Assembly (NCBI GenBank): GCA_977020255.1
Contig: CDROCS010000318.1
Location: 248,001 to 312,000 of the forward strand
Reading direction: 5' to 3'
Length of the DNA stretch: 64,000 bases
Source of the DNA: Obrimoposthia wandeli
Lineage: Eukaryota
The notes beneath the pieces were generated by a model that saw only the letters and a program-made list of their open reading frames with translations, was not told the origin of the DNA and did not search any database. Shown piece after piece: positions 660 through 46,434 of the stretch. The number at the start of each line of letters is the position of its first letter. Position 1 is the stretch's first letter. The position numbers and the translations under genes were made by a program.

Positions 660-699
660 TTGATATACTACTATGGTCGTCCATAGTTTAAAGGGTCAA

Positions 700-1075: not shown

Positions 1076-1596
1076 ATAATGAAAATTTATGATAAAGTTC
1101 ACACTTAACAATTAAGAATATATGACGTAATCATACACACACTATTTTATGTGAAAATCAAGGCTAAAGTTCACTCTTATCAGTTAAGGAATGTGGTTTT
1201 TAACACACACACTATTCTATGTGAAAGTTTAGATCAAATTATTTTCCTAGGTTTTCACATTTATAGAATTATGATAAAATTTCTTTAAATAACTTCAATT
1301 ATATATTAAAATAAAAATAAAATAAGAAAGAAGTCAGAGAATAATACAAAATTAAACACATTTATTATGTAATTTCATAATATCATCTTCAAACTTAAGT
1401 GAATAACATTTACAAAGTAAGAAAGTCCATTCTTTATACATTCTTTTCGTTTCAACGACTAAGTTACAACAGTATTAATAGAAAATTAGTAAAAATATTA
1501 ATTTATTTTGAATATTTGAATGTGAGTTTGAATAAATGAGAGGTAGAATGAATGTAAATGAATAAAATTATGCATGCAAGTATGAATGTCATTTAC

Positions 1597-2546: not shown

Positions 2547-2842
2547 TTTTTAAATTACTTGATATTTTTTTTGCCATTGTCCGTTTAATATAATATGAAT
2601 ATTCAATTTATTTCTTCAAAAATTCATTTTATATGTTAAATAATATTCTTTATCACATTATTGTGGTTTTTATCAAGTGATTTTAACCTTAAACTATAAA
2701 AATATTTTAATTATAAAGTTAGTTGCTGTACCCCGCCCACTGCATATAACATAAATTTCAAATATAAAGTACTATTAAGTTATTATTTCGAATAGTAAAT
2801 GTTTTTTCGAGTTATTTAATTTTGTTTACTAGACATTCGAAA

Positions 2843-5800
2843 ATTTACTTGTAAACTACAATATTTATTTGTTGTTGTATATATTTAGTTTAAAATGGTG
2901 TAAGTTATTACTTTAATATAATTTACAACCAAAACTTCAAATAGTTTACTTGTAAACTACAATATTTATTTGTTGTTGTATATATTTAGTTTAAAATGTT
3001 GTAAGTTATTACTTTAATATAATTTTCAACAAAAACTTCAAGTAGTTTACTTATTAAACATAAGTTTAATGTTTTGTACAATAAATTGACTTGTAAACAT
3101 AATTTATTTTGATATATTTTCAATTTAAAATGTTGTAAGTTATTACTTTAATATAATTTACAACAAAAACTTCAAGTAGTTTAAAATGTTACACAATAAA
3201 ATGTTTATTTGTAAGTTATTACTTTAATATAATTTTCAACAAAAAATTCAAGTAGTTTACTTATTAAACATAAGTTTAATGTTTTGTACAATAAATTGAC
3301 TTGTAAACATAATTTATTTTGATATATTTTCAATTTAATATGTTGTAAGTTATTACTTTAATATAATTTACAACAAAAACTTCAAGTAGTTTACTTATTA
3401 AACATAAGTTTAATGTTTTGTACAATAAATTGACTTGTAAACATAATTTATTTTGATATATTTTCAATTTAATATGTTGTAAGTTATTACTTTAATATAA
3501 TTTACAACAAAAACTTCAAGTAATTTACTTGTAAACTACAATATTTATTTGTTGTTGTATATATTTAGTTTAAAATGTTGTAAGTTATTACTTTAATATA
3601 ATTTTCAACAAAAACTTCAAGTAGTTTACTTATTAAACATAAGTTTAATGTTTTGTACAATAAATTGACTTGTAAACATAATTTATTTTGATATATTTTC
3701 AATTTAATATGTTGTAAGTTATTACTTTAATATAATTTACAACAAAAACTTCAAGTAGTTTACTTATTAAACATAAGTTTAATGTTTTGTACAATAAATT
3801 GACTTGTAAACATAATTTATTTTGATATATTTTCAATTTAATATGTTGTAAGTTATTACTTTAATATAATTTACAAAAAAAACTTCAAGTAATTTACTTG
3901 TAAACTACAATATTTATTTGTTGTTGTATATATTTAGTTTAAAATGTTGTAAGTTATTACTTTAATATAATTTTCAACAAAAAAACTTCAAGTAGTTTAC
4001 TTATTAAACATAAGTTTAATGTTTTGTACAATAAATTGACTTGTAAACATAATTTATTTTGATATATTTTCAATTTAATATGTTGTAAGTTATTACTTTA
4101 ATATAATTTACAACAAAAACTTCAAGTAGTTTACTTATTAAACATAAGTTTAATGTTTTGTACAATAAATTGACTTGTAAACATAATTTATTTTGATATA
4201 TTTTCAATTTAATATGTTGTAAGTTATTACTTTAATATAATTTACAACAAAAACTTCAAGTAATTTACTTGTAAACTACAATATTTATTTGTTGTTGTAT
4301 ATATTTAGTTTAAAATGTTGTAAGTTATTACTTTAATATAATTTTCAACAAAAACTTCAAGTAATTTACTTGTAAACTACAATATTTATTTGTTGTTGTA
4401 TATATTTAGTTTAAAATGTTGTAAGTTATTACTTTAATATAATTTTCAACAAAAATTTCAAGTAGTTTACTTATTAAACATAAGTTTAATGTTTGTACAA
4501 TAAATTGACTTGTAAACATAATTTATTTTTGATATATTTTCAATTTAATATGTTGTAAGTTATTACTTTAATATAATTTACAACAAAAACTTCAAGTAGT
4601 TTACTTATTAAACATAAGTTTAATGTTTTGTACAATAAATTGACTTGTAAACATAATTTATTTTGATATATTTTTAATTTAATATGTTGTAAGTTATTAC
4701 TTTAATATAATTTACAACAAAAACTTCAAGTAGTTTACTTATTAAACATAAGTTTAATGTTTTGTACAATAAATTGACTTGTAAACATAATTTATTTTGA
4801 TATATTTTCAATTTAATATGTTGTAAGTTATTACTTTAATATAATTTACAACAAAAACTTCAAGTAATTTACTTGTAAACTACAATATTTATTTGTTGTT
4901 GTATATATTTAGTTTAAAATGTTGTTAGTTATTACTTTAATATAATTTTCAACAAAAACTTCGAGTAGTTTACTTATTAAACATAAGTTTAATGTTTTGT
5001 ACAATAAATTGACTTGTTAACATAATATATTTATGCATATATTAACTTTAATATGTTGTAACTTATTACTTTAATATAATTTTCAACAAAAACTTCAAGT
5101 AGTTTACTTATTAATCATAAGTTTAATGTTTTGTACAATAATTTGACTTGTAAACATAATATATTTATGCATATATTAACTTTAATATGTTGTAACTTAT
5201 TACTTTAATATAATTTTCAACAAAAACTTCAAGTAGTTTACTTATTAATCATAAGTTTAATGTTTTGTACAATAAATTGACTTGTAAACATAATTTATTT
5301 TTGATATATTTTCAATTTAATATGTTGTAAGTTATTACTTTAATATAATTTACAACAAAAACTTCAAGTAGTTTACTTATTAAACATAAGTTTAATGTTT
5401 TGTACAATAAATTGACTTGTAAACATAATTTATTTTGATATATTTTCAATTTAATATGTTGTAAGTTATTACTTTAATATAATTTACAACAAAAACTTCA
5501 AGTAGTTTACTTATTAAACATAAGTTTACTTATTAAACATAAGTTTAATGTTTTGTACAATAAATTGACTTGTAAACATAATTTATTTTGATATATTTTC
5601 AATTTAATATGTTGTAAGTTATTACTTTAATATAATTTACAACAAAAACTTCAAGTAATTTACTTGTAAACTACAATATTTATTTGTTGTTGTATATATT
5701 TAGTTTAAAATGTTGTAAGTTATTACTTTAATATAATTTTCAACAAAAACTTCTAGTAATTTACTTGTAAACTACAATATTTATTTGTTGTTGTATATAT

Positions 5801-8157
5801 TTAGTTTAAAATGTTGTAAGTTATTACTTTAATATAATTTTCAACAAAAATTTCAAGTAGTTTACTTATTAAACATAAGTTTAATGTTTTGTACAATAAA
5901 TTGACTTGTAAACATAATTTATTTTTGATATATTTTCAATTTAATATGTTGTAAGTTATTACTTTAATATAATTTACAACAAAAACTTCAAGTAGTTTAC
6001 TTATTAAACATAAGTTTAATGTTTTGTACAATAAATTGACTTGTAAACATAATTTATTTTGATATATTTTCCATTTAATATGTTGTAAGTTATTACTTTA
6101 ATATAATTTACAACAAAAACTTCAAGTAGTTTACTTATTAAACATAAGTTTAATGTTTTGTACAATAAATTGACTTGTAAACATAATTTATTTTGATATA
6201 TTTTCAATTTAATATGTTGTAAGTTATTACTTTAATATAATTTACAACAAAAACTTCAAGTAATTTACTTGTAAACTACAATATTTATTTGTTGTTGTAT
6301 ATATTTAGTTTAAAATGTTGTTAGTTATTACTTTAATATAATTTTCAACAAAAACTTCGAGTAGTTTACTTATTAAACATAAGTTTAATGTTTTGTACAA
6401 TAAATTGACTTGTTAACATAATATATTTATGCATATATTAACTTTAATATGTTGTAACTTATTACTTTAATATAATTTTCAACAAAAACTTCAAGTAGTT
6501 TACTTATTAATCATAAGTTTAATGTTTTGTACAATAATTTGACTTGTAAACATAATATATTTATGCATATATTAACTTTAATATGTTGTAACTTATTACT
6601 TTAATATAATTTTCAACAAAAAACTTCAAGTAGTTTACTTATTAATCATAAGTTTAATGTTTTGTACAATAAATTGACTTGTAAACATAATTTATTTTTG
6701 ATATATTTTCAATTTAATATGTTGTAAGTTATTACTTTAATATAATTTACAACAAAAACTTCAAGTAGTTTACTTATTAAACATAAGTTTAATGTTTTGT
6801 ACAATAAATTGACTTGTAAACATAATTTATTTTGATATATTTTCAATTTAATATGTTGTAAGTTATTACTTTAATATAATTTACAACAAAAACTTCAAGT
6901 AATTTACTTGTAAACTACAATATTTATTTGTTGTTGTATATATTTATATATATTTAGTTTAAAATGTTGTAAGTTATTACTTTAATATAATTTTCAACAA
7001 AAACTTCAAGTAGTTTACTTATTAAACATAAGTTTAATGTTTTGTACAATAAATTGACTTGTAAACATAATTTATTTTGATATATTTTCAATTTAATATG
7101 TTGTAAGTTATTACTTTAATATAATTTACAACAAAAACTTCAAGTAATTTACTTGTAAACTACAATATTTATTTGTTGTTGTATATATTTAGTTTAAAAT
7201 GTTGTAAGTTATTACTTTAATATAATTTTCAACAAAAACTTCAAGTAGTTTACTTATTAATCATAAGTTTAATGATTTGATCAATAAATTGACTTGTAAA
7301 CATAATATAATTTGCATATTTTCAATTTAACACGTTGTAAGTTATTACTATAATATAACATTACAAAAAAAGTAATTAAACATAAGTTTACTGTTTTGTA
7401 AATAAATGACTTGTAAACATAATATATTTATACATATATTCACTTTAAAATGTTGTAAGTTATTACTTTAATATAATTTTCAACAAAAAAAAAAAAACTT
7501 CAAGTAGTTTACTTATTAAACATAAGTTTAATGTTTTGTACAATAAATTGACTTGTAAACATAATTTATTTTGATATATTTTCAATTTAATATGTTGTAA
7601 GTTATTACTTTAATATAATTTACAACAAAAACTTCAAGTAATTTACTTGTAAACTACAATATTTATTTGTTGTTGTATATATTCAGTTTAAAATGTTGTA
7701 AGTTATTACTTTAATATAATTTTCAACAAAAATTTCAAGTAGTTTACTTATTAATCATAATATTAATGATTGATCAATAAATTGACTTGTAAACATAATA
7801 TAATTTGCATATTTTCAATTTAACACGTTGTAAGTTATTACTATAATATTACATTACATAAAAAAGTAATTGATAGTTTACTATCGTTTACAATAAATTG
7901 ACTTGTAAACATAATATATTTATGCATATATTCACTTTAATATGTTGTAAGTTATTACTTTATTATAATTTTCAACAAAAACTTCAAGTAGTTTACTTAT
8001 TAAACATAAGTTTAATGTTTTGTACAATAAATTGACTTGTAAACATAATTTATTTTGATATATTTTCAATTTAATATGTTGTAAGTTATTACTTTAATAT
8101 AATTTACAACAAAAACTTCAAGTAATTTACTTGTAAACTACAATATTTATTTGTTGT

Positions 8158-8201
<44 letters not shown>

Positions 8202-8243
8202 GTTTAAAATGTTGTAAGTTAATACTTTAATATAATTTACAAA
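2843..8243 (+). repeat. AT-rich composite satellite (134-bp A units and 101-bp B units plus variants; about 40-45 units) with higher-order structure
   Basis: Units share the core ATGTTGTAAGTTATTACTTTAATATAATTT(T/A)CAACAAAAACTTCAAGTA. A: 3371 to 3505 = 134 bp; B: 3505 to 3606 = 101 bp. A (TA)n tract at ~8161-8198 lies in the last unit. Confidence 0.93.
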
Positions 8244-9471: not shown

Positions 9472-9774
9472 TTCTGGACACGTGGCCTTTTGGATAACAA
9501 TTATTGGACACTTGGCTTTTGGATAACGATTATTGGACACTTGGCTTTTTGGATAACGATTATTGGACACTTGGCTTTTCGGTTAACGATTATTGGACAC
9601 TGGGCTTTTCGGTTAACGATTATTGGACACTTGGCTTTTTGGTTAACGATTATTGGACACTTGGCTTTTTGGTTAACGATTATTGGACACTTGGCTTTTT
9701 GGTTAACGATTATTGGACACTTGGCTTTTTGGTTAACGATTATTGGACACTTGGCTTTTTGGTTAACGATTATT
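9472..9774 (+). repeat. 30-bp tandem repeat (TATTGGACACTTGGCTTTTTGGTTAACGAT), about 10 copies
   Basis: TATTGGACAC at 9502, 9531, 9561, 9591, 9621, 9651, 9681, 9711 and 9741, plus a degenerate copy near 9472. Confidence 0.95.
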
Positions 9775-10006: not shown

Positions 10007-10957
10007 GGAATTGAAATTAGTCTATTGCACGAAAAAGTGCTTACCTTCTTGAATCCTTGATTGACGTGTTTAATTAACCGTTTTTTCTTAATTACTTCTA
10101 AATTGTCCCTTTTGGGTTAATTAATTTAACTTTTATACATTTTCGCATAATACACGACCTTCGTGGTCCTCCTAATTTTTACCCTAAATTCCACTAATTT
10201 TAATTCTAAAACTAAAATTAATATTTTAATCTAATTTTCAACCTTGCTTTCAAGGATTTTTATTTTAGTATTTAATCGACTAAAATATTTAATTTTCTTA
10301 ATTCTCAACCTTAACACATGTATAATTTAATTGTCAACTACAGTAAACTATAATTACTCTTTGTGTACAGTAATAATTTCCAATATATTAAAGTAAACAT
10401 TTACAAAATATAATCTGTTTACAAGTCAATTTATCATACAAATCCTTAAATTATGATTAATAAGTAAACTACTTGAAGTTTATTGTTGTAAATATATTAT
10501 GTTTACAAGTCAATTTATCGTACAAATCATTAATATTATGATTATTAAGTAAACTATTTGAAGTTTTGGTTGTAAATTATATTAAAGTAATAACTTACAA
10601 CATTTTAAACTAAATATATACAACAACAAATAAATATTGTAGTTTACAAGTAAATTTTCGAATGTCTAGTAAACAAAATTAAATAACTCGAAAAAACATT
10701 TACTATTCGAAATAATAAACTTAATAGTACTTTATATTTGAAATTTATGTTATATGCAGTGGGCGGGGTACAGCAACTAACTTTATAATTAAAATATTTT
10801 TATAGTTTAAGGTTAAAATCACTTGATAAAAACCACAATAATGTGATAAAGAATATTATTTAACATATAAAATGAATTTTTGAAGAAATAAATTGAATAT
10901 TCATATTATATTAAACGGGCAATGGCAAAAAAAAAATCAAGTAATTTAAAAAAAAAT

Positions 10958-13150
10958 CAAACTATCGACACTCTTATTTTTTAAAATTACATTCACTTGC
11001 TAAACCCACTTACTTGTATTGAAAATTCAAACTAACAATCACTTGCTCGTCATACTTGCATTCAATCTAACTATAATTTATTCAACAAAAACTCTATTTT
11101 AATTTACTTATAGTCTAAATTACACTTGCATTCAATCAAACTATCGACACTCTTATTTTTAAAATTACATTCACTTGCTAAACCCACTTACTTGTATTGA
11201 AATTCAAACTATCAATCACTTGCTCGTCATACTTGCATTCAATCTAACTATAATTTATTCAACAAAAACTCTATTTTAATTTACTTATAGTCTAAATTAC
11301 ACTTGCATTCAATCAAACTATCGACACTCTTATTTTTAAAATTACATTCACTTGCTAAACCCACTTACTTGTATTGAAAATTCAAACTATCTATCACTTG
11401 CTCGTCATACTTGCATTCAATCTAACTATAATTTATTCAACAAAAACTCTATTTTAATTTACTTATAGTCTAAATTACACTTGCATTCAATCAAACTATC
11501 GACACTCTTATTTTTAAAATTACATTCACTTGCTAAACCCACTTACTTGTATTGAAAATTCAAACTATCAATCACTTGCTCGTCATACTTGCATTCAATC
11601 TAACTATAATTTATTCAACAAAAACTCTATTTTAATTTACTTATAGTCTAAATTACACTTGCATTCAATCAAACTATCGACACTCTTATTTTTAAAATTA
11701 CATTCACTTGCTAAACCCACTTACTTGTATTGAAAATTCAAACTATCAATCACTTGCTCGTCATACTTGCATTCAATCTAACTATAATTTATTCAACAAA
11801 ACTCTATTTTAATTTACTTATAGTCTAAATTACACTTGCATTCAATCAAACTATCGACACTCTTATTTTTAAAATTACATTCACTTGCTAAACCCACTTA
11901 CTTGTATTGAAAATTCAAACTATCAATCACTTGCTCGTCATACTTGCATTCAATCTAACTATAATTTATTCAACAAAAACTCTATTTTAATTTACTTATA
12001 GTCTAAATTACACTTGCATTCAATCAAACTATCGACACTCTTATTTTTAAAATTACATTCACTTGCTAAACCCACTTACTTGTATTGAAAATTCAAACTA
12101 TCAATCACTTGCTCGTCATACTTGCATTCAATCTAACTATAATTTATTCAACAAAACTCTATTTTAATTTACTTATAGTCTAAATTACACTTGCATTCAA
12201 TCAAACTATCGACACTCTTATTTTTAAAATTACATTCACTTGCTAAACCCACTTACTTGTATTGAAAATTCAAACTATCAATCACTTGCTCGTCATACTT
12301 GCATTCAATCTAACTATAATTTATTCAACAAAAACTCTATTTTAATTTACTTATAGTCTAAATTACACTTGCATTCAATCAAACTATCGACACTCTTATT
12401 TTTAAAATTACATTCACTTGCTAAACCCACTTACTTGTATTGAAAATTCAAACTATCAATCACTTGCTCGTCATACTTGCATTCAATCTAACTATAATTT
12501 ATTCAACAAAACCTCTATTTTAATTTACTTATAGTCTAAATTACACTTGCATTCAATCAAACTATCGACACTCTTATTTTTAAAATTACATTCACTTGCT
12601 AAACCCACTTACTTGTATTGAAAATTCAAACTATCAATCACTTGCTCGTCATACTTGCATTCAATCTAACTATAATTTATTCAACAAAACTCTATTTTAA
12701 TTTACTTATAGTCTAAATTACACTTGCATTCAATCAAACTATCGACACTCTTATTTTTAAAATTACATTCACTTGCTAAACCCACTTACTTGTATTGAAA
12801 ATTCAAACTATCAATCACTTGCTCGTCATACTTGCATTCAATCTAACTATAATTTATTCAACAAAAACTCTATTTTAATTTACTTATAGTCTAAATTACA
12901 CTTGCATTCAATCAAACTATCGACACTCTTATTTTTTAAAATTACATTCACTTGCTAAACCCACTTACTTGTATTGAAAATTCAAACTATCAATCACTTG
13001 CTCGTCATACTTGCATTCAATCTAACTATAATTTATTCAACAAAAACTCTATTTTAATTTACTTATAGTCTAAATTACACTTGCATTCAATCAAACTATC
13101 GACACTCTTATTTTTAAAATTACATTCACTTGCTAAACCCTCTTACTTGT
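10958..13150 (-). repeat. 178-bp satellite, 12 full units (right arm)
   Basis: Marker CGACACT occurs 13 times from 10966 to 13100, spaced 177-179 bp. Confidence 0.95.
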
Positions 13151-13669
13151 AAATGACATTCATACTTGCATGCATAATTTTATTCATTTACATTCATTCT
13201 ACCTCTCATTTATTCAAACTCACATTCAAATATTCAAAATAAATTAATATTTTTACTAATTTTCTATTAATACCGTTGTAACATAGTCGTTGAAACGAAA
13301 AGAATGTATAAAGAATGGACTTTCTTACTTTGTAAATGTTATTCACTTAAGTTTGAAGATGATATTATGAAATTACATAATAAATGTGTTTAATTTTGTA
13401 TTATTCTCTGACTTCTTTCTTATTTTATTTTTATTTTAATATATAATTGAAGTTATTTAAAGAAATTTTATCATAATTCTATAAATGTGAAAACCTAGGA
13501 AAATAATTAGATCTAAACTTTCACATAGAATAGTGTGTGTGTTAAAAACCACATTCCTTAACTGATAAGAGTGAACTTTAGCCTTGATTTTCACATAAAA
13601 TAGTGTGTGTATGATTACGTCATATATTCTTAATTGTTAAGTGTGAACTTTATCATAAATTTTCATTAT

Positions 13670-14020
13670 GGACTAGATCACAAAAAAGAAGGGTGGAGAC
13701 TAAGCCACTTGATCCTTTGAATTAGTGGTTAACCAAAAATAAGGGTGGAGACTAGACCACAAGAGATGGGTGGAGACTAAGCCACTTGATCCTTTGAATT
13801 AGTGGTTAACCAAAAATAAGGGTGGAGACTAGACCACAAAAAGATGGGTGGAGACTAGATCACTAAAAGAAGGGTGGAGACTAGATCACTAAAAGAAGGG
13901 TGGAGACTAGACCACAAAAAGATGGGTGGAGACTAGACCACAAAAAGAAGGGTGGAGACTAAGCCAATTGACCCTTTCATAGTGGTATATCTCAAAAAGA
14001 AGGGTGGAGACTAAGCCAAT
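13670..14020 (-). repeat. 26-bp subterminal repeat (GGGTGGAGAC), 10 copies
   Basis: Core at 13691, 13743, 13768, 13820, 13846, 13872, 13898, 13924, 13950 and 14002. Confidence 0.9.
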
Positions 14021-14059
14021 TGACCCTTTAAACTATGGACGACCATAGTAGTATATCAA

Positions 14060-14299
14060 GGAAGGATGGAGTCTAGATCAATTTACCCCCCCCCATCCCC
14101 CTCCCTCTAAAGGGTGTCACACCATAAGGGTGTCACACCATAAAAGGTGTCTTGCCACACCATAAGGGTATATGTTGCCTCACCAGAGGTGAGGCAACAT
14201 ATACCCTTATGGTGTGGCAAGACACCTTTTATGGTGTGACATCCTTATGGAGTGACACCCTTTAGGGGGGGGGTAAATTGGTCTAGACTCCATCCTTCC
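14060..14299. repeat. Terminal palindrome/hairpin, right (240 nt)
   Basis: Mirror copy of 421-659, centred on CCTCACC-AGA-GGTGAGG. Confidence 0.92.
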
Positions 14300-18822: not shown

Positions 18823-20612
18823 CACCTATTGTAACTTAGTAAGTTATACTAAGTCAATTAGTAAGTTAGAATCACTTAAACGTGATTAGATCATTTAATT
18901 ACCAATGTAATTGCAAATGATTTAAGTGGTTTTAACTTATTTGTAGTTTAACTTATTTAACAGTTTAATGTTATTTTATACACTTTAACTGTTTTTAAAC
19001 TTTAAATTTTACAGTTAAACGTGATTTTATTATATAATTTATATTTATTATAATTATATAATGATTTAACTGTTTTTTGGATATAAAGTTTAAAAAGGAA
19101 TGAAGAAAAAATAAATAGAAATGTTATATTTATAATACATAGTTATAAAATGGATTCTTTCTTCATGTATCGCGGAAAGAATTTTTTTATGTGACTGTAA
19201 TGAGAAGTTACATCTTGGTTTGAGGAATCAATCAGTACGCCAGCGATACTTTCGCGGATTTTAAATATTTTTTCCTCCGATGAAGCTTGCAGCATACCAG
19301 CAGTCCGCGTAAGTTTCTTCCTCACATCACTTTTCACTTTAGAAAAAACCGTTTCAATAGGGTTTAAAAGGGACTGTAAGGGGGTAAATTTACAATTTTG
19401 TGGAGTGATGAGGTGGTGAGTGTCCGATTGTGGATACTGGCGTTGTCATGGATAAGATAATGTTGGGTATCTGGTAATCGTAGAGACAGATCTGCTACGA
19501 AAGCTTGATAAAGTAAATGGGTAAACGATCCTGCTACAACTTCAGAATGTACAGGACCCTGTTTTGAAATTGCCATGACGAGGCTTAGTGATCGGGATCG
19601 AGCTGGGACGGTATGGTATATACGAAGTCCCCGTCGAGATCGACCCATTCTTTGTCTTGTCCAGACATTTATAGACGTTTCATCTATATAGATGCATTCT
19701 TTGGACTTCCAACCTTCTTCCATCAATTTTGTTACGTATTCGCAACGCAAATCTTTTACGGCATCTGAGTTTTGCCAACTACAGAGTACCTTATTTTCTT
19801 CCGGGTGACAAGTTGACCTTTTAAAAAATTAGCGATTGTTTTCATGCTGGGACTAATATTGTGATTTTCTGCCACGAACATATTAATCTCATTTAAAGTA
19901 GCTGTGTTGTTGGCGTCCAGAAAACATAAAATTGCTTCACCGATAGTTTCGGTTATTAATTTGTGCCGATAACCTCCAACATGTCCAGTTGACAGAACTT
20001 CATTCTTATTGTACCTTTTAGAATAATAATTTTAAAAATTCAAATGAAATACCTGGACACTAAATTGTATATGGACCCCGAACACTGGTAGCCCAACATC
20101 TTAGCTAATGATACATAATCATGTCCTTCATGATAACATTTTATGATTCTTTCCTTATCTATACGAGAAATTCTATAAAAAATAAAGATATGTTAAATGT
20201 TAAAAAACAAACTTTTGTCGAGATTTAAGTGGTGTAGGCTGACTAGGTCCATCCAAATCATTAAATCGGAAAGGAAATGTACGCTCAGACTCTACACTCG
20301 ATATATTTGAAAGGTTTTCATACATTTTTAATATACCTAATCTAACTTAGTAAGTTCTTTTTAACTTAGTAAGTTGCTATCAAATTGTGCCTCTCGGTGG
20401 GTTTTGATTGGATTGTTATTATTTTCAAATCCACGTATGTATGTGGTATTTTATTTTTACCTGTATTTTAATCTAATAACCTATTTTTAATTTAGTAACT
20501 TGGCCAGAAACTCAGTTGTACCCAATTCAGGCTATGTGATTCTATTCAAATATCAAATGCAGGTATTAATTTAGTAACTTATCTAATTTAATTTACTAAT
20601 TTACAATAGGCG
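18823..20612 (-). mobile_element. IS630/Tc1-superfamily DNA transposon (~1.8 kb) in intron 4 of the EF-hand gene
   Basis: Imperfect TIRs CCTATTGTAA(C/A)TTAGTAA at 18825 and 20610; TA on the left flank only; subterminal TTAGTAAGTT repeats; internal DDE transposase. Confidence 0.8.
19143..20000 (-). pseudogene. Frameshifted Tc1/IS630-like DDE transposase
   Basis: Motifs IYIDET, LIHDNASIH and LPPYSPF-(L)NPIE. There is a 1-nt loss in a T-run near 19366 and another frameshift near 19780. Confidence 0.85.
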
Positions 20613-22668: not shown

Positions 22669-23349
22669 TTGAAGTTATTAAAGTTTAAAGATTACTGTTA
22701 AATTTAACTTTAAATTAATTCCTTATTCTCGTTCTTATAGTTACTGAGTATTAAAACAATAACAGTGAATCTCGAAATTCAAATGTTTTCAAAATCAATT
22801 TCAAATATTAAATTTTGCAATTTTAAAAAATATATATAAAACTATAAATAGCAACAACAATGAAAGTATTTGATTAATTTAAGTTGATAATTTTTTTTAT
22901 AAAAGTTTATTAGTTTACCATTATTTTACTTTCGTCAAAATTACAGAATTGTTTAGCAGAGTTGGAACCGGCCATTAAACCCACCCCCGGCCGATATTGG
23001 CCGGTAAATAAAATATTAATTTATGAAAGCTTTTATATTTTTTCAATATTTTAGAAAGCATCTTTATGTGAGAGCACTTGTATTCAATCTTTGATTTAAA
23101 AAATTAATATTAATTTCGTTGACATTTTTGCTTTTTATTAATCTGTTCGTAAGAAAGACTCTAGTTCGAGAGTTCTCAACAGTATATGACTGGTATGTAT
23201 ATGAGTGAGGCAAAAAGGTCAAGTTGGTCATAAAGTTTGACAAGGATTAAAGTCTAATTTAGGATTACCGACCCCATCTTTGATACGACGTAATGAAATT
23301 AGTGTAATTTCTTCTTTTTTTTTTGAACATATCTTTACTGCTTGGTACA

Positions 23350-23760
23350 GCCCCTATCGACCTATCGACAACATCAAGTTTTTGAATATCAAAATATCTG
23401 ACAATAACAGCCAAAATCTGTGCTACTGTGATATCTGTACATTTATCTATTAGCATCGAAAATTGATTAGTTTTGCAAATATTAGAAATGTTTAATTTTT
23501 TGTGATAGGATAAGCCTTCTTGTATAATATTAAAAAAACTTTGATAGCCTTCATATTTACCTGTTTTACAATTTGACTATCATGGAATACTTTCTTACAT
23601 GCTTTCACAAGGTGATCACATACTGCAAAGGGCAAATTGTGTTCAGAAATGAAAGTCTCAATTATTAATTCTGCCTTTCCTGTTATTTCACTATCCGTTG
23701 GTTTACATGTGTTGGGAATGGAGAAGAGGTGTATTTATATTTTTGGGATAGTTAAATTTA
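23350..23760 (-). pseudogene. hAT transposase fragment
   Basis: Reads ...FISEHNLPFAVCDHL... then FSMLIDKCTDITVAQILAVIVRYFD, resembling the hAT IIDESTD...LAVxIRYFD segment. Confidence 0.6.
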
Positions 23761-23937
23761 TTGAAATTTTAGTGTTGATTGTTTTTGTGAAAAGGAGTTG
23801 ATTTTTGAAAGTTTTAATTATTTCTTTAATTGAAAAATAACTAGGAGAAATTTCCTTAATTAGCAAAATTGATTGATTAAGTAAACTGCATCTTGACATT
23901 TTTTCAATCTTGATAATTTCAGTTATTATCAGTCCTT

Positions 23938-23983
23938 GACCGGCTTAACCGGTTTCGCCCTTCGGGCTTATCAGGGTGACGGC
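23938..23983 (-). ncRNA. Type I hammerhead ribozyme core (G8A variant, probably inactive)
   Basis: Minus strand reads CUGAUAA-GCCC-GAA-GGGC-GAA-ACCGG-UUAAG-CCGGU-C. Stems II and III are perfect; the 3' strand of stem I is absent. Confidence 0.75.
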
Positions 23984-24523
23984 AGATTTATCTCTGGCTT
24001 CGCGGTGGGCAAAGTGCTCGCGAAGTCAGACATAAAAAGAAAAAAAACAGTGAATAATAAATAATTATCTGGACAAAGTCGCCCAGATTACAACATACAT
24101 CAGGCCGGGAATTCGTCTCGTTATCGGCTAGCGTTCGTCGGAAAGCGACAGATAGCAACTGTCTCTGGAGTGCGGTTGCTGACGTTTCGGGTTTCAGTCC
24201 ATTCTCAGCCTTCTCTCCATCTCGCTTGACCTTTTCGACCTACACACTCTCTGGTGCTGCGGCCCGCTCAATCCCTGCAACATCATCACCAAGCTGGTCG
24301 GACTGATTTTTCTGTCCTCTTCTCCTCGCACACTCCCTCTCGTGTATCTCGTCTACATTCTAGCTGTGTTTGTGAACTTAGCTTCATACCTGTCTCTCTC
24401 CCTCTAAATCTGTACGATGATGATGATTGGTTGCTATAAATAGCGATGGAATTGTGGAATATAGGCAAGAGTTACAGACACAAAATTTTGCTGTGATCAT
24501 TATTTCTTTTGTAAAAATATTGT
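23938..24523 (-). mobile_element. Penelope-like/retrozyme-like insert (586 bp) carrying hammerhead motifs
   Basis: GC-richer insert between two copies of a 127/126-bp direct repeat (23811-23937, 24524-24649). A type I hammerhead core sits at the junction and a second degenerate core at 24181-24208. Confidence 0.65.
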
Positions 24524-25289
24524 GTTTTAATTATTTCTTTAATTGAAAACTAACTAGGGGAAATTTCCTTAATTAGCAAAATTGATTGATTAAGTAAACT
24601 GCATCTTGACATTTTTTAATCCTGATAATTTCAGTTATTATCAGTCCTTCACATGAATTCAATTTAGTAAATTTATTTTGCTGAAGATTCTATATATTCA
24701 ATTAATATTTATAACTGTTGCACATGCAACAAAGAAAGTATCAAGTGGTTTAGCAGTCGTCATAATATTAATACAATTTTATGTTTAGATGTAGTTTGAT
24801 GACTCATTAACAGAGTACTGTTTTCGTTTCTGATTTTCCCTTTGCAACAAATACAATAACACGTATCTTTTTCAGTTCAATCCTCCCTAACCAATCCTTA
24901 AATTAGGGAATTGCGAACCATTCGTTTTAAAAAATTTTTGAATACCAATTTTTGCTTATCTTTCTTGATGGAGAATATTCTTAATTTATGATTAATAATG
25001 ATGTGAGTTTTGCTGTTGATTGAAAAAATGTGCTGTTAAATGTTAACATCAGAAAATGCTGTTAACAGCGCTATTAAACAGCACATATTATGTAATATTA
25101 TTAACAGTAAATAATCTATATAACCAAACAAGCTGTTAGATTAAATTAAACAGAGCAGATGAATCAGTATAATCATATGCATATATCATAAGAAAAAAAG
25201 TCTATGAAACAATATATATTAAAAATTAAATTGAAACATACTACATATTGTATAACAAATACATTATATTGCTTTTAATTTTATTATAA

Positions 25290-25900
25290 CTTATTGTTTA
25301 GATTTGATCTTATATCTGTATGTAATTGTCTGTGCTTACTGAAAGATCTTTCTACTGATTCTTCTGTTATTGAAATTTTAAGAATTAAATTTAATAAAGT
25401 TTCATGCGCTGGAAAATTCGTAACCTTTACGTTTTTATTTTACATTGATAATAATTTTATATCAGACATTTCTTTTACAAGTTCATCATGCTTTATTACT
25501 GATAAAATACTTTTAGCCCGAGTTGAAAAGTAGTCAGTGTAAGGGTTCTCTCTATTTAATATAATTAATCTATTTAAAAAAAAAAGTTTTAAAATAATCG
25601 GATATTTTTCCTAACGGAGAAAATCAAAATAGGTTCAATCTTTTCTGCCACAGTTCTATTAATTTTGATTTTATAGATTTCGGAAGACCTAAATCAGTAT
25701 TCCATTCAACCAGTATTGAACCAGTACTACATTGTTTACCTAAGTAATGGCTTTTTTTCACCTTATAAATATCATTAATATTAAAAATGAATTACTTTCT
25801 GTAATACTACATTTTTCTTTATTAAGCATGTCCTCATGCTTTTTCATATGATTGCTCAGCGAGGAACTATGCAAATGGCCATTTGCATATTTTATTATTT
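25290..25900 (-). pseudogene. Decayed, internally deleted hAT transposase
   Basis: Zn-finger-like SSLSNHMKKH near 25850 and C-terminal dimerization-like EESVERSFSKHRQLHTDIRSNL near 25310-25375; in-frame stops present. Confidence 0.55.
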
Positions 25901-28592: not shown

Positions 28593-31475
28593 CAGTGGTG
28601 GGATTCAAGGGTTCGCACCGGTTCGCGCGAACCGGTTCCTAAAAATATAAAAGTTCGCAGAACCGCCTGAACCGGTTCCTGGACTACCTACTTCGACTGA
28701 AACGTACATAATCATCTGGATAAAAAATATATAATTTTTTAATTCGTTGATTGAACGCATTATTTATTCTTATTTATTCTTATATTAATATTAATGGGAA
28801 AGTCAAAATTTCGAAACTATTATTAAAATTCAGCAAACATTTAACTACAATATATTAATATTTAAACATAAAAAAATCCGAGCACAGATTTTTTCATGTA
28901 TATATAATATGGTGAAATGAACCTTCTACATATAACAATGGTTCAACCGTTTAAGTAAAATTGATATATATATTTTAATGATAAATTATATCGAGTGTTT
29001 TACATGTAATTTGTAATGGGATATTATAATATGATACACTAAATATTAAATTTATCACATGATACTGTTATTATAATATATTATTTCTTCAACAGATTAG
29101 CTCAATAATAATTAAGAATCATTTAATTGTAGATTTATCACCCTGTAATGAAGCGACAGCATAGTATAGCTGATTTTTTTTCAAAATCTCCAAAGACTGA
29201 TGGAAAGGAAAACTCTGAACAAACAAATTTCGCATCAGGTTCAGCAAGCGATAATATTTCGAAACAAGCAACATCATCCGAATATCTAACATTACAGAAA
29301 GAAACTTGTGATAAAACATCTGAAAATGCAAATCTGCAAGATAAAGAGTATGAAATTGTTAGGAATAATGATCTTCCTGACAAGCCGAGATGTTTAAGAA
29401 GAAATACGATTGTTTAGTTGTTATAAACAAGAAACTAGGGTGTGATTCATGTGCCAAATTTGATGCTTTAACTGGAAAGGATATACACATATCTAAAGAA
29501 TGGAAGAAATGTAACGTTGAAGGACACGGGAAAAATAAAGCCGTTGAGCAGGCGTCTCTTAGGAAAAAAATGAACGACCATTTTACATCTAAAGCACACA
29601 ATTTATGCGTTATACATCTGAAAGAACGCCAAAATGATGGTATTACCAAAGCTATTGATAAAATAAATGAAAAATTTAATAGCTCTACAAACAAAGTATT
29701 CAATACAGTTTATAGTATAGTAAAACGAAATCTACCGTTTTCTGCCGTTGAAGATGAAATTGAATTACAAATCAAAAATGGCTTAGATATGGGAGTAGGA
29801 CTTCATTCTCGAAAAACTGCTGTTAAAATAGTTGATCACATTGCGAAAGAGATCAAAACAAAAGTATTTGCTAAAATAATTCAACAAAATTTAAAAATTT
29901 GTGTTATCATTGATGAAGCTTCCACTATATCTAACAAGCCAGTTTTGGTAATTTTTATAAAAGTTGAAGATAGTGAATTTTCGCCAACAATTTTTGTAGA
30001 TTTAGTTCAGTTGGAGGGTCAGGATGCAGAAACAATATACACTACTTTGTTGAATAGTTTGAATAATGTAGGCTTTGATGACGAATATTTAACAAACAAT
30101 CTAATAGCATTTTGTTCCGACGGGGCAAGTGTAATGCTTGGCAAAGTATCTGGTGTTAGCGCCATAATTAAACAAGGTTTTCCAGATATTATCATTTGGC
30201 ACTGTTTGAATCATCGTTTGCAACTCGTTTTGGATGATTCTATCAAAGATATAAAACAGGTGAATCACTTCAAAACATTTATTGATGAAATTTACAAGAT
30301 ATTTCACCAGTCAAATAAAAACCAAATGGAACTTTTCAAAATTTCCGAACAACTTGGAATAGAAATTCTAAAAATTGGTAGAGTTTTAGGACCGAGATGG
30401 GCTGCTTGCAGTCTTAGATCAACAGTTGCAGTATGGCGTGCTTACCCAGCATTATTTGATTATTTTAGTAGCAAAGAAAAGTTCACAGGAATGGCCAAGC
30501 GTTTTGCAAACAGATATTTCCTTGAGGATTTAGCTTTAATGATAGATATATTAAAGGAAATATCATTACTTTCAAATGCTCTACAATGTAGAAATTTAAA
30601 TTTGCCACGAGCCGAAAAGTTAATAAGAAGGTCAATCAAGGCGCTAGAAATGATGAAAGAAATGAAAGGTTCTTATGAAACAAAAATTGACGAGACTGTT
30701 GCTTCTGATGCATTTCTTCATATTAAGTTTGTTCAAAATAAGAAATATATTAACCTTCCTCGCCAAAGCCTGTTAGATTCTATTATAAAAAATATGAAAC
30801 TAAGATTGATGGATTCTGATGAAATAAAAGCAAGCAAAAACTCCAAAGAAATTGATAACAAAATTCACTGTTTAGTAAACATCGTTAGCCCTGAATCATG
30901 GGATATTGATGAAGTTGTTGTATCGTGGAAACAAGCTGAAGAAAAATTACCCGGATTCTATAAGCAGTTTCACCATAAAATATGCGTTAACGATTTCCGT
31001 GACTATGTAGAAAATGTTATAGAAAACCGTCTCAATCAAGATGTTCCTTCTACAATACAAAAAGCAAAAAATATTATTAATACAATTGCTTTGAGTTCTG
31101 CTGAAGCGGAACGCGGATTTTCAGTTATGAATGTGATATATAGCGATAAAAGGAATCGTCTTGAAGTTCAAAATGTCGCAAATCTTATGGTAATAAAGTT
31201 AATTGGTCTTCCTCTTAATTTATGGGATTCTATGGATTCTGTTAAAACGTGGCTAAGAAAACACCACACAGCTGATGATAAAAGAGTGAAGCATTCATCT
31301 AATAGTTCTTATAATTCTAATGAATTATCAATCTGGAAATATTTGGAATATGATGGTAAATAAAATGATTAATTGGACTTGTTTATTATTAACCACACAC
31401 GGAAAAATTGATTTAATTCCACATCAACCGGTAAATGAGCGAACCGGTTGCTAAACAGTTTGAATCCCACCACTG
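28593..31475 (+). mobile_element. hAT DNA transposon (2,883 bp), KIAA1586/ZNF862-like transposase
   Basis: Perfect 16-bp TIRs (CAGTGGTGGGATTCAA / TTGAATCCCACCACTG), perfect 8-bp TSD GAAATATT (28585-28592, 31476-31483), and subterminal GAACCGGTT repeats. Confidence 0.95.
29148..31363 (+). CDS. hAT transposase, split by one frameshift near 29390 (89-aa ORF + 657-aa ORF)
   Basis: Motifs IIDEAST, CSDGASVMLG, WHCLNHRLQL, RW, and SSAEAERGFS with the C-terminal dimerization domain. Confidence 0.9.
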
Positions 31476-40287: not shown

Positions 40288-41496
40288 ATGTCAAGTCTAA
40301 CAAAAGGAAGCACAGACAATGTTGGTCCAAAACAAACAACAGTGGGTAACATTAAAAAATTAACTAGATGTTATAAAGTGTCATGAAGATGGTGCATCAT
40401 TGGCTAAAATTGCATGCGATTATAAATGAGTCATCTGTGTGTGCTATTGTAAAGAAGAAACAACAATATAAAGATCATGGAATTGCTACTGCATCGTACA
40501 TGTCAAAAAGATTTGCACAGAATAGAGATAAAACATGTTGAATATGGAACGACTTTTATTAATGTGGATTGAAGATTGTAATGAAAAAAGAATTCAAGTC
40601 AGTCAACTTATTATTCAAGAAAAAGCACGAAGTCTTTTTAACACAGTTACCACTCAAAATGAAGACTGGTTCACAAATTATTTTTGTCTCGCAACTGAAC
40701 TATATTGCAAAGAAAATGACAGTAAATTTAAAATTATTTTGTTATTAGATAACGCACCAGGACATTCATCTGCACTTGGTGATTTAAATAACAATGTTAA
40801 AATTGTATTTTTTACTGCCAAACACAACTTCGTTATTACAACCGATGGACCAAGGAGTGATCGCAACATTCAAGGCTTATTATATGAGACAAGCTTATTC
40901 TCATGCAATTAAAATTACGGCAGGAGAAAATGCTATTTCATTAACTGATTTTTGGAAGAACTATAATATCAGAATTGCAACTGAAAATATTGATTCAGCA
41001 TGATGTTAAGTTACTGTTTGCAACATGAGAGATGCATGGGAAAAGCTTTTGCCTCACTGCACGAATGATTTTGGTGGTTTTGAATCTCAAGTTCAAACAG
41101 TTGTAGAAAACATTGTTCAGGTCGTGAAAGAACTTGGATTTAATAATGTAGACAATGCTAATGTGCGTGAATGTATCGACTCTCATTCTGGTGAGCTCGA
41201 TAACTAAACTCTCGTAGAAATTGATCAGAAACAAGCATATGAAGAAGAGGAAAAAAAAATAATAAAATGATCTAGTTGAAATAAAAAAAATTAGCATTGC
41301 TGACATGGACAAATTATTTTCACTTTATGATAAAGCTTCCAAAATTATTATGAATCGAAACCCAAATGTCGAACGCAGCATCCAAGTGCGAAACTCTGCT
41401 GAAAAAAGTATTCGATGTTACAGAGAACTTTATGCCACAAAAACGAAGAAGAAATCAGTCCAAACTTCTTTGCTTAAATATTTTTCTAAACAATAA
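40288..41496 (+). pseudogene. Tigger (TIGD1-like) transposase relic with internal deletion
   Basis: MERLLLMWIED...IIQEKARSLF (HTH) is fused directly to ILLLDNAPGH and LLPNTTSLLQPMDQGVIATFKAYY (DDE_1); several frameshifts. Confidence 0.85.
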
Positions 41497-44318
41497 AACC
41501 TTCAGAATTCTTTTTGTTTCAATCAATATTAAATTATAATCTTGTTTCATTATCTCTGTTAATGCTCTTTTTTAATGCATTTAATAACTATTAATTATTT
41601 TATAGTATGTACATATCGATATTTATTCAGTTCGGAACGAATTACTATTAAACCCATTATATAATGCATAAAACAGTGCGGGACAATTCTGGTACGAATT
41701 ACCTGCACTGTTCGGGGTATTACGGTACATTTTTTGCAGATTCATTTCTAAGCATACTTTATCAAAGCTTATCTGTTTATTCAACAAAACAGATGTTAAA
41801 AATTCAATCAATGACATTGTTCTGACAAAATGAACAATTTAAATATAGATTCAATGTAATCGATAGACACAAATGTATTTTAAGATGATATGCGTTGAGT
41901 TTAAATGATTGAGAACATAGCACAAAAATGTACGATGGAAATTTCTGGGAAAATATTTGTGAATAGCTTTTATAAAATGTAGGAAAATGGTTTTGCGATC
42001 ATCATTCATTATTTTGTAATTAAGTCAAAGTAGTGTATTATACGAAGTATGCGAAGAAGCATTTAGTTTTCTAAAATAATTAGTCATTGTCTATAATAGA
42101 TTCTACGGACAAAGGTTGTATCTACAAAATATTCCCTGACTTTATTTTTTCACACTAAAATGTCCATTAGCACTTAGCATTTTTAAAATTTGACATTTAG
42201 TTGGTAAGACTAAAAAAATAGAAAAAAAAAGCATTCTGAGTTCAAAAATAGAGCCATTTTGTACGATGTAACGAAATTATGTAGCAATTGCTTTTTACTT
42301 TTAATTTATTATATAAGACTCAATTTTTATATATTTTAGCATATGTATAGTTATAATGTCGTCTTACTGTTAGTTAATTTTGTGACAATTCGGTAAATGA
42401 TTAGTATTTGGCAAGTTACATTTTGATATGAAATAACCTCTAACGTCCTTTAAAATAATATAATAACACGGAAAAGTTATTATAAAGATGACAAAAATGT
42501 TTATTCTTAATAGTTTAGGTTAACGTAAGAAATCTTCCCTTTGAACCAGAAATTTGGGTTAACTTCGAGACACTGTTAAAAAAATGAATAAATAGGCCCT
42601 GTACTTATGTAAAAGTATTCTAAAGATAGTCTGCAAATCCTTATTGTATGTTAAAACGAAAGTAATTATACTTTAATATCTTTAAATTAATGTTTACCAA
42701 AAGTGCTTGTCAAAGTTCAGTAATATCTATGCGTATGGAAGTGATAAAAAGTATATTTAATATATTAAAAAAAAACGCGTCTAATTCGAAAAACTCTACA
42801 GTGTTGATAGATTATAAGTCTATTTTAAAATGGTCCCAATTTCTTCATCCGATTTGGTTTTAGTTATTGTTCAGACCTGAGATCGGATGTTTTAGAGTTG
42901 TGTGCGTGTGTTAACATAATAATTATAATGTTAAAAGTCGTTACAGAAAAGTGATGTTTTGTTTCAAAAAATGAATTGTGAAAATTTGAATTGGTTGTAA
43001 AAGAAAAAACTAGCGTATGTGAGTTTTTGTTAAATAAATTGTTGGAGTCATTTTTTGTATTTTACTTCGACGATGGACGCAGAAACAGTTATGAAAGGCG
43101 ATTTCATATAAATTAACCAGATTCCTATAACTATTATTGGCACAATTAAAGATGCAAAACTATTTAAAAATAACCAAAATCTTTGTTGAAGATACAATTG
43201 ATAATGAAGAATATACTATACTATACAAGTTTTAAATGTAATCGAAATTGTTTAAGACTTTAACAGAACGTTGTATTGCAAAAAGTAATTTTGACAGTTT
43301 ATCCCAGCTTAAAACCTCTATTTTAGAATAGTGGGATAATATTTCTTATGAATACATTCCAAATTTTAATCTTAATTTCTTGTAAAATTGTTAGACTTCA
43401 TCAATAGAAATGGATGTTTTCCTTATAATATTAAATTAATTTTCTATTTTCTAATTTTAATTGATATGAAAATTTAATTACTACACGAATTCCTTACACG
43501 TTTGTATTTTACTTACAATAATCAGTAGTATAAAACATCAATATGTGTTTCTTTATTTGATTCTTGGAGTTAAAAAATTCCTAAAACTGGTTTGACAGTA
43601 TTTGTTCTGTGGTTCATTACTAATGTGTTGAAGTATTTATGTTATTATGATGTTAAGGTTATTATTTATTTAATTTCCACACAATTTGCAAATATACTAA
43701 TTATTTGAATATTAGTAAAATAAATTTTGATTTTCTTTTGATCATTTCTAAATATTGTGAATAGTCGTGTTATTTATCAATATATTTATAAAATTTATAA
43801 AAACTTAAATTAAAATATATTTTAAAAGGACATCATCAGGAAATGCAGCTTAGGTGCTTTATATGTTATCTCTAGCAATTTCGACACAAACGGCTTAATA
43901 CAAATCTTGATTGATCTTCAAATATTCTGATTGGGTATTGCGATTAGGTTTCCAGCTTCACAGATAACTCTCATCATATTTAAAAAAATCATAATAAATT
44001 CTAGTAAATTATTAGATTATTCTCGTTTACTAGATCTTTACTCATATTATGATCAAGGAATGCACTCTTTATACTCGGTTGGTTATGTTATCTAGCCGCT
44101 GTGCGAAGATGACAATGTGCTTCTTCATTGTACAATAGAGAGCAACAGTTAGATTTAAAATTATTACAATATGTATATCCAAGGGTGTATTAAATGCATT
44201 TGAAAATTCAGAAAATCGCAGCCTCGTAACTGTTTATATTTAAGATTTTTTTGATCTGGCTTAAAACGAATGCAGGTCTTATAAGTTCTCAGTTTACAAT
44301 GTACTCTCTATTATGCAG

Positions 44319-44463
44319 GCGTTTTCAGTGGCCGAGAAAGAGTTCAGTATCCCGGCCTTGCTGGACGCCAGAGATATGGTGATCATGAAGAGCCCCGACC
44401 GACTTAGCATCATTACTTATCTCTTCCAGTACATCAGTATTCTTTCACACAATAATTCTCCAA
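44319..44463 (+). CDS. MICAL-like protein, exon 3: end of CH domain
   Basis: Encodes [39 protein letters not shown], the typical C-terminal half of the EHBP1/MICAL CH domain. Confidence 0.88.
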
Positions 44464-46366
44464 GTGAGTCTAATAAAAGTCAATGAAAAATATGTTCAAA
44501 ATTGACTATGGAAGTTTTAAAAACGACTCGGCTATTAACCACTGACCTACATGTAACGATTAATTTTTAAAATTTGTCTAAACCCATCTAGGGTTTCCAA
44601 TATACGGTTGATTTAAAACAATATTTTAATATTTTTACACCACTCTTATCAAAAATCTGAATATTGTCCGAGATTGAAAAATATGACTATTCATAGAAAC
44701 CGTAAGAATGATTCAGATGTATTTTACTAAGTATACTTAATGGTCCCGGCTTGTCAACTCCCAAAGGATTGATCTCACTTAATTTCATATAAAACTCTTT
44801 CAATCAAAAGCAAATCGAAATAATTTATAGCTATAATCAAAATATTTAATATATTTTTCAAAAACATTTGTTGAAATATGGTAGCCCAATCAGATATACG
44901 GGTTTTTAAAAATGTCAGCTCTACTTGTTGTTTGTCATTAAAAAAATAACGTTAGCTGCTTGATACTATAAACTATTGCTTCTTGTAAAGCCTCACTTTT
45001 GTTGAATTCGGTTTGACTTGTCTGTTTTTGCGTTTGTGACTGTATTCTAGGTAAATGATTTGTCTTGTGTCGAATTTACAGACAAATATTTACGTGATAA
45101 ATGGCTACTTTCAGAATGTAGCCATGATATAGGTTTACAGTAGTTATAGTCTGACCTCAGCATTATTTATACAGATGTGTGAATTTCAACTTTCTTTTTG
45201 AAATTCATTTTAGCTTTTTTATTGTATCATTTTCTAGCACACTCAACCATTTTTTAACAGCAGTCTACACTTAGGAGCTGATGATGAAATTCTAAATGCT
45301 GTCATTTAGATGTCTAAATTTATACCCTATAATTAGAGACTATTTTTCCGAGTTGAAAGAATGGTTAAATTTTAATTCGATTATAGTGCAAAATAAAAAT
45401 TTAACTTCCGTTCTGTAATTCTTAATTCTCAAGTTGTACGAATATCGAATGGAACATACCAGTAAATTAGAAATGTCTTAGTTGCGTTAAATGTTAAATT
45501 AAAAACAAACAGTTTTAAGCAGCTGATAACATATAAGATATCCTTTTTGAATTTAATAAACAATTTAAAACGTTTAATAAAGGAAGCACTAAATAGATTC
45601 TGCAAATAAAATATCACATGCTAATTTTTTAATATTTAAATTTCTAGTAACAAATGTATAACGTGAAAGTTTATGTACATTTATGCAACTTTTTTAAAGA
45701 GAATTTTATAAAATAGATGTAAGTATAACTAATTTTTTTCTCAATGTTTTGGTGAAATTTAAAAATAATTGTTGTCTCTAAAATAAACATAAAGGTTAAT
45801 AAAATAAATACATTAAATACTGGTAACAAGTACTTCTTGAAAAATGCTTATTGCAAAAAATAACTGAAAAAAGCTTTTAAAAATGTTCGAACTCTGCTAA
45901 GAAACAGGCTTTCCTCTGCAAATGAGTAGAAGTCTGATTATGAAATTATTGGAAAATAAGGTATATCAATAACATACCATTAAACAAATTTAATATGTTC
46001 GTGAAGATCCAGATTTTTTTACATGTCCCTGAAATTGGAAAAATTCTTTAGAATATCCATTAAATGTTATTATATAATTTTTACTTATTACGGAAAACCT
46101 TAATAAGTTTTAGATCAACTTTGCGGAAATACATGTAATATCTCTGATATATTTTCGTGTACCGCACCGTAACTTTTGTCTATATTTTTCTAACGAAACC
46201 ATGAATCCATTTTCTGATTGTGAATTTGAAGATGATCTTTCTTTTTTCGATAGCAGCAGTTCGTTTATTCACTTAAAAGGTTAGTTACGATGTGGATCAT
46301 GTAGCATTTTCTTGACATGTTTTCTGTCGCTACCAATGAATTCATCTCATTGCTCCTCCGTTTCAG

Positions 46367-46434
46367 AGAAGCCAGTAAAGAACAGTCCCCTGGCTTCGAT
46401 CGAGAACATCTCCAATGGAAATATTTCTAAGCCA
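46367..46434 (+). CDS. MICAL-like protein, exon 4
   Basis: Encodes (K)KPVKNSPLASIENISNGNISKP; TTTCAG/GTAAGT boundaries; phase-consistent. Confidence 0.7.

Follow-up and report, generated by a model that had tools for sequence, protein, structure and literature searches.

Results

Gene content of the window and the host target

The window, that is, the whole stretch of 64,000 nucleotides of Obrimoposthia wandeli DNA analyzed here (contig CDROCS010000318.1), is AT-rich, mostly with 16-36% GC per kb, and eukaryotic in look. Its genes comprise pieces of an EF-hand gene, a CH/bMERB (MICAL-like) gene and transposases of hAT, Tc1-like (DDE_3) and pogo-like (DDE_1) type. The same tandem repeats, with units of 16, 26, 77 and 178 bp, occur at ~459-3400 and ~10400-14262 in mirror order and opposite orientation, enclosing a 134/101-bp satellite (3209-8242) and a 30-bp array (9475-9774) in a large foldback-like inverted structure. 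A frameshifted Tc1-like transposase (19143-20031, minus strand; DDE_3, E=9e-12) lies amid the EF-hand gene pieces. A hAT element occupies 28594-31363 on the plus strand; its open frame spans 660 codons (Dimer_Tnp_hAT), and its left end bears subterminal AACCGGTT repeats. The plus strand also carries a Pogo/Tigger-like remnant (40532-41003; HTH_Tnp_Tc5, DDE_1) and exons of the MICAL-like gene (44265-53706), with a CH domain, a 423-codon frame containing a LIM-like stretch recognized by eye, and a bMERB domain. An imperfect, MITE-like palindrome of 209 bp (72%) is located at 58147-58355.

Homolog alignments revealed a decayed hAT-like transposase, related to DUF4371 and Dimer_Tnp_hAT proteins, at 23202..24998 on the minus strand, which is the target of the insertion described here. 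Its frame at 23268-23576 has 73 homolog matches, and DUF4371 or Dimer_Tnp_hAT was found in five of the seven scanned. The homolog P0002 (14 of the 73 homologs were used) aligns on both sides of the insert, with residues 7-70 at 24974-24778 and residues 92-208 at 23698-23346, so the insert splits the target between homolog residues 70 and 92. This interval holds ~367 nt of target sequence against ~66 nt expected, a linker ~300 nt longer than that of P0002, and the excess may be either a longer linker in this hAT or other inserted DNA. At 23202-23290 (minus strand) a large internal deletion has taken out the stretch of the remnant between homolog residues ~208 and ~577.

Structure of the insert and its target duplication

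The insert (23938..24523, minus strand) comprises 586 bp with 46% GC, which makes it GC-rich relative to its surroundings; it encodes no recognized protein, and blastn found no second copy in the window. It is flanked by direct repeats at 23811-23937 and 24524-24649 (127 and 126 bp) that are three substitutions and one indel apart. The copy at the element 3′ end (23811..23937, plus strand) lies in a 66-codon stop-free frame, as stop-free in 40 of 20000 shuffles, which joins the hAT frame after one stop; in the copy at the element 5′ end (24524..24649, plus strand) the hAT frame is broken by a frameshift and a stop. Since hAT homologs match both sides of the insert and the left copy lies in the hAT frame, the 127-bp duplication is host DNA. 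A reading of this repeat as the element's own pLTR or as a circle overlap was ruled out, because the repeat has an AT-rich composition, shares the frame of the hAT remnant and yields no helix I. The 5′ junction has an AT-rich segment (24482..24523) that is like the start of the adjacent repeat over 28 nt at 75%, 11 nt of them exact, an echo seen in 12 of 3000 shuffles and in 5 of 331 comparable adjacent windows; it is possible that this segment is locally templated filler.

On the ribozyme strand, a hairpin with 18-bp arms (23987..24036, minus strand; 89% complementary, -20 kcal/mol) lies directly upstream of the terminal hammerhead motif, and folding of 23938-24030 gives z=-2.59. A U-rich tract (24034..24066, minus strand) separates this module from the remaining insert, in which folding places a 9-bp hairpin at 24067..24088 (minus strand). 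Near the 5′ end of the insert, ATTGG followed by TATAAATA (24424-24452, plus strand) forms a promoter-like stretch facing away from the ribozymes; it may stem from an inverted piece or act as an antisense promoter. Neither a tandem repeat nor a repeat of the element beyond one unit is present in the insert, repeats and inversions of pLTR size are likewise absent from its interior, and no 30-40-bp tail follows the hammerhead. No RT or GIY-YIG Pfam domain was found in nine frames in or beside the insert, in ten long frames, or in 79 of the 120 frames of at least 60 aa listed for 14500-64000, with the minus-strand insert frames 23991-24239 and 24243-24359 excluded; truncated copies often lack an ORF. 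Searches of the insert against phages (E=0.2) and plasmids (E=0.1) returned only short chance-level matches. A plus-strand, A-tailed SINE at 23938-24048 was considered and rejected, its own duplication not being seen.

A hammerhead core at the 3′ end of the insert

Read on the minus strand from 23974 to 23938, the insert ends in CUGAUAA GCCC GAA GGGC GAAA CCGG UUAAG CCGG U C, a type I hammerhead core (HHR-B, 23938..23974) in which C3 to A9 correspond to 23974-23968 and C17 to 23938. Position 8 is an A (23969), resulting in a C3·A8 mismatch; the other core bases of CUGANGA...GAAA...UH are all present. Helix II has 4 bp (GCCC/GGGC) with a GAA loop and is closed by G10.1-C11.1, and helix III has 5 bp, including A15.1-U16.1, and a near-palindromic loop, followed by U16.1-C17. 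The pairing probability of both helices was 1.0 at the two pairs tested. A relaxed hammerhead descriptor matched once in the window and in 15 of 300 shuffled windows; a strict one, requiring G10.1-C11.1 and 4+4 Watson-Crick pairs, also matched once, and in none of 1000 shuffles. HHR-B is the sole window match of the descriptors used for it, and on these sequence grounds it is a real type I hammerhead, beyond chance. The original prediction of a minus-strand core ending in GUC was thus confirmed. Among the covariance models that it proposed as a check, Hammerhead_HH9 scored HHR-B at 22 bits (E=0.011) in a 1.1-kb search, below its gathering threshold of 52, and nothing in an Rfam search of the window reached the gathering threshold.

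The insert 3′ junction lies exactly at C17, for the adjoining base, 23937, is the last base of the left direct repeat, and the predicted coincidence of junction and cleavage site therefore holds. After a G/C mismatch (23938 versus 24650) two further bases match (AC); placing the junction at 23940 would be possible at the price of one later change and is less parsimonious, while the C17 junction needs no change. C17 is one position in a 586-bp insert, and by our own arithmetic an end there has a chance of ~1-2% if ends fall within 50-100 nt of the ribozyme. The 3′ strand of helix I is missing, as was also noted originally. Its position is occupied by host sequence, and the orphan 5′ arm (23975..23985, minus strand) has no partner on the same strand, with no exact 6-mer or one-mismatch 9-mer in the whole window and no two-mismatch 9-mer in 22900-25400, so the two-stranded helix I of a type I hammerhead is not formed.

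Two other readings of the motif were rejected: as a type III hammerhead using upstream GUC triplets, neither helix I nor helix III forms by eye, and had it come from the subterminal AACCGGTT repeats of the hAT element at ~28594, helix II and the core would be left unexplained. Helix III of HHR-B self-dimerizes in silico with 14 of 15 pairs and -21.6 kcal/mol, which is weak evidence given that 144 of 1024 loops are equally good; its near-palindromic form resembles the palindromic helix III described for ribozymes of metazoan Penelope-like elements (PLEs) (PMC4209133).

A second hammerhead motif

Overlooked by the original prediction, a second motif (HHR-A, 24181..24208, minus strand) has the form of a decayed Penelope-type minimal hammerhead, with a weak helix II and without helix III. 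From 24208 to 24181 it reads CUGAGAAU-GG...CC-C-GAAACGUC, where the 8-nt box carries an A at position 8; apart from this A, the motif matches CUGANGAH-G..C-GAAAN-NUH, the consensus of metazoan PLEs (Fig. S3 of PMC4209133). As a candidate minimal type I ribozyme with an 8-nt box it is like the PLE form save for position 8 and helix I, which was not found in register. The pattern, which was chosen post hoc, has no other match in the window and matched 1 of 20000 insert shuffles. Both motifs read CUGA-N-A-A. The cut site of HHR-A is located 243 nt upstream of that of HHR-B on the same strand, and the insert runs 343 nt past it, which implies that the template was uncut there. On alignment, the two segments that end in a ribozyme show no more similarity than shuffles do and are non-homologous, and HHR-A and HHR-B were accordingly rejected as diverged tandem units.

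This lack of homology means that the insert may be composite, which would favor a coincidental end: copying from an arbitrary start on a circular or multimeric retrozyme or PLE RNA, or DNA capture during double-strand-break repair, with the end falling on C17 by chance. The long duplication, the templated-looking 5′ filler and the published retrozyme model, which uses circular templates (PMC7229834), are in line with such an event. It would nevertheless require an accident of ~1-in-100 to 1-in-600, and a more-than-unit repeat of the element is absent, so we regard it as quite unlikely. The likelihoods that we attach to competing readings, here and below, are judgements and not computations.

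Position 8 and present activity

HHR-B lacks a partner for helix I and carries the C3·A8 mismatch, and as it stands it is probably inactive. Among 56 representative PLE ribozymes counted in Fig. S3 of PMC4209133, 54 have an 8-nt first box and two have A8, both with U3, so that C3·A8 occurs in none of those shown. The exact 30-nt HHR-B pattern had no match in bacterial and archaeal genomes, where 39 loci with an HHR-B-like helix II and core were found, with G8 in 35 and A8 in four; compared with these loci, the insert gave core-level matches only. A complete topology of type I or III is present in 22 of the 35 G8 loci (five of them on one contig) versus none of the four A8 loci, and C3·A8 is found in none of the 22 complete hammerheads. 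The single contig, from a Dehalococcoidia assembly, carries five type III hammerheads ~0.7-1.6 kb apart (L001, L002, L019, L020, L021). An animal-style canonical type I hammerhead with a small palindromic helix III was also seen (L034:401-440) in a Poribacteria assembly, on a 3.5-kb contig that may be DNA from the host.

The original prediction had the G8A change arise after insertion, an order of events that the data do not establish. The divergence of the duplication copies gives ~1.2% change per copy (95% range 0.25-3.5%), and by this clock the chance of any change in the 13 core bases since insertion is 14% (3-37%). Considering this low probability together with the second motif, which is also defective and also has A8, the core lesion may be older than the insertion. 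Three single-change routes can equally lead to CUGAUAA: G8 to A, loss of G8 from the Penelope box CUGAUGAA, or U3 to C in a natural U3-A8 variant. The accompanying statement that G8 is needed for catalysis proved too narrow. It is the 3-8 pair that matters, given that C3G/G8C partly rescues activity (Frangieh 2024, PMC11167929) and that U3-A8 is a natural core variant with ~1300 matches in Schistosoma (Cervera 2014, PMC4209133). A defect that predates insertion does not exclude cleavage by a partner ribozyme: metazoan type I ribozymes are known to adopt a dimeric fold (PMC4209133, PMC6155905), and from its topology we infer that the core of one copy would cut the site of the other, so that even a dead copy could be cut.

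The recurrence of CUGA-N-A-A in two non-homologous motifs of one young insert raises another reading, in which C3·A8 is a family feature, either a natural core variant that has low activity or is helped by a protein, or a structure shaped like a ribozyme that marks where RT starts and does not cleave. Natural variants such as U3-A8 and the Anolis ribozyme, which is described as cutting only with protein (PMC11167929), offer precedents. Against it stand the PLE examples and the A8 loci counted above, and HHR-A is decayed in other respects too; we hold this reading to be very improbable.

Discussion

Unusually clean in its anatomy, the insert works like a PLE- or retrozyme-derived retro-insertion, and it offers no ORF or tandem unit by which to assign it to either family. 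Type I ribozymes such as those found here occur in the pLTRs of metazoan PLEs (Cervera and de la Peña 2014, PMC4209133), an account that describes minimal ribozymes and a circle model; their 8-nt box, G10.1-C11.1 and GAAACGUC are common to HHR-A, and dispersed 5′-truncated single copies like the insert are common among PLEs. HHR-B departs from these ribozymes in its 7-nt box and its stable helix III of 5 bp, and both motifs depart from them in C3·A8. The insert also differs from PLEs in its two dissimilar ribozymes 243 nt apart on one strand, in that an RT/GIY-YIG remnant was not found in the frames searched, and in its lack of the tandem or inverted pLTR and of the 30-40-bp tail that extends beyond the pLTR (Craig 2021, PMC8557442).

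Animal non-LTR retrozymes resemble the insert in being non-coding, below 50% GC and structured as RNA (PMC7229834; bioRxiv 10.64898/2026.07.22.740005), and HHR-B in having a canonical-size type I ribozyme with a 4-bp helix II. The 46% GC of the insert, its 127-bp duplication and the 243 nt between its cut sites agree with the description of retrozymes by Cervera 2020 (PMC7229834), with units of 150-450 bp and duplications of >4 bp. In contrast to retrozymes, which are multi-copy families of tandem units that each carry a type I ribozyme and are expressed as circular RNA, the insert is not tandem, and the start of the 243-nt segment lacks the HHR-B helix I partner, so this segment is not a cut-to-cut monomer; moreover, the retrozyme model uses circles and not a linear cut end (PMC7229834). 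Retrozymes have been proposed to derive from pLTRs (Li 2026, 10.64898/2026.07.22.740005) and to be mobilized by PLEs (PMC7229834; 10.64898/2026.07.22.740005).

Two further systems share the 3′ end of the insert in part. In endonuclease-minus PLEs (Athena/Coprina, Terminons) a 3′-terminal ribozyme is linked to the joining of the RNA end with chromosomal DNA, the ribozymes being described as assisting telomere attachment (Craig 2021, PMC8557442); those elements use telomeric overhangs and complementarity to telomeric repeats, whereas the insert is interstitial, has a target duplication and shows no telomeric repeat. Tailless retropseudogenes have a tailless 3′ end and a target duplication, like the insert (Noll et al. 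2015, PMC5322556), but they are mammalian, L1-driven and primed internally at A-rich sites, while the insert lacks evident Watson-Crick terminal complementarity.

Our preferred interpretation, which we consider probable with moderate confidence, takes the insert for a retrocopy, non-coding and truncated at its 5′ end, of an RNA from a PLE pLTR or a PLE-dependent non-LTR retrozyme, and holds that the ribozyme-cut end of this RNA was reverse-transcribed into a nicked target. The observed part consists of the anatomy, the exact C17 junction, the host duplication and the two same-strand hammerhead motifs. A longer transcript would have been cut after C17, either in cis or, in a dimeric fold, by a partner ribozyme; the latter route would work even if the core of the copy was already defective. 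Once a retroelement endonuclease had nicked the plus strand after 23937, reverse transcription would start at the very last base of the RNA, with no tail and no added bases, and proceed through the uncut HHR-A. The 5′ side would be closed by end-joining with short filler, after another nick at a distance of 127 bp. An element 3′ end adjoining the start of the duplication is a hallmark of target-primed reverse transcription. Host duplication, 3′ end at its start and 5′ truncation are all found here, with an atypical duplication length.

Several points weigh against this cut-end interpretation. There is a single copy, with no relative found in the window, in bacterial and archaeal genomes, or among phages and plasmids, and the core is probably dead (C3·A8) yet a post-insertion change has a probability of only ~14%. 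A ribozyme-cut RNA end carries a 2′,3′-cyclic phosphate, and the use of such an end by a PLE enzyme is hypothetical. The 127-bp duplication is far above usual sizes, the filter in PMC5322556 being 8-35 nt. The strongest contrast comes from Poseidon of Anolis (PAc), the only purified PLE, as reported in PMC11167929: its RT starts internally, 111-118 nt into the ORF with the cut at +26, ribozyme mutants insert normally, and the RNA-seq data described there include no reads ending at the cut. PAc shares with the insert a ribozyme near the 3′ end and an AT-rich target, and its enzyme nicks both strands, from which variable duplications could result (PMC11167929). PAc copies, on the other hand, start ~85-92 nt downstream of the cut (the "tail") and cleavage is dispensable, whereas the insert is tailless and stops at the cut.

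Weak flank complementarity also leaves room for the main rival, in which an RNA that had not been cut was primed internally, in the manner of tailless retropseudogenes. The nicked target would then anneal to the helix I 3′ strand just past the stable helix III, and copying would start at C17. Of the first 8 bases predicted for the partner, the target primer could pair with 6 when G·T wobble is allowed (4 without it), PLE enzymes start internally (PMC11167929), and Noll 2015 (PMC5322556) favors this route over pre-cut RNA for tailless copies; A8 in both motifs suggests a decayed source, and an already dead source core fits. The bases at the primer terminus, however, are T·G, T·G and a mismatch, which makes a poor primer, and the helix I partner is inferred rather than observed. 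Between 2 and 7% of window positions score equally, so that landing on C17 would still be a coincidence, and we judge internal priming to be unlikely. Reverse transcription from the cut end remains in our view the most likely reading, at somewhat better than even confidence, while contradicting the only biochemical study and resting on one copy. As a fossil of such an event, which is how it was originally interpreted, the insert is supported by the C17 junction, the target duplication and the missing helix I strand, and opposed by its single copy and by the Poseidon biochemistry.

A more general proposal is tentative and, as a whole, somewhat unlikely: a family of PLE-mobilized ribozyme RNAs in which the hammerhead cut sets the start of target-primed RT, giving tailless, cyclic-phosphate-derived ends and long duplications. 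In its boldest form, the C3·A8 core would be a regulated variant cut by a partner ribozyme. Ribozyme-made 3′ ends are said to have been tied to telomere attachment by Arkhipova in 2017, which would lessen the novelty of the cut-end reading. In the literature searched, mostly outside subscription journals, we found no report of interstitial copies ending at a hammerhead cut site.

The role of hammerheads in PLEs and animal retrozymes is described as unknown (PMC8557442, PMC7761336). If copies in genomes stop precisely at the cut, they would directly attest, as fossils, to the use of cut RNA ends as templates, and the insert is a single-copy hint that ribozyme-cut RNA ends can be copied straight back into chromosomes. 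If this is true, the hammerheads of PLEs and retrozymes would take part directly in integration, in contrast to the internal start of Anolis Poseidon.
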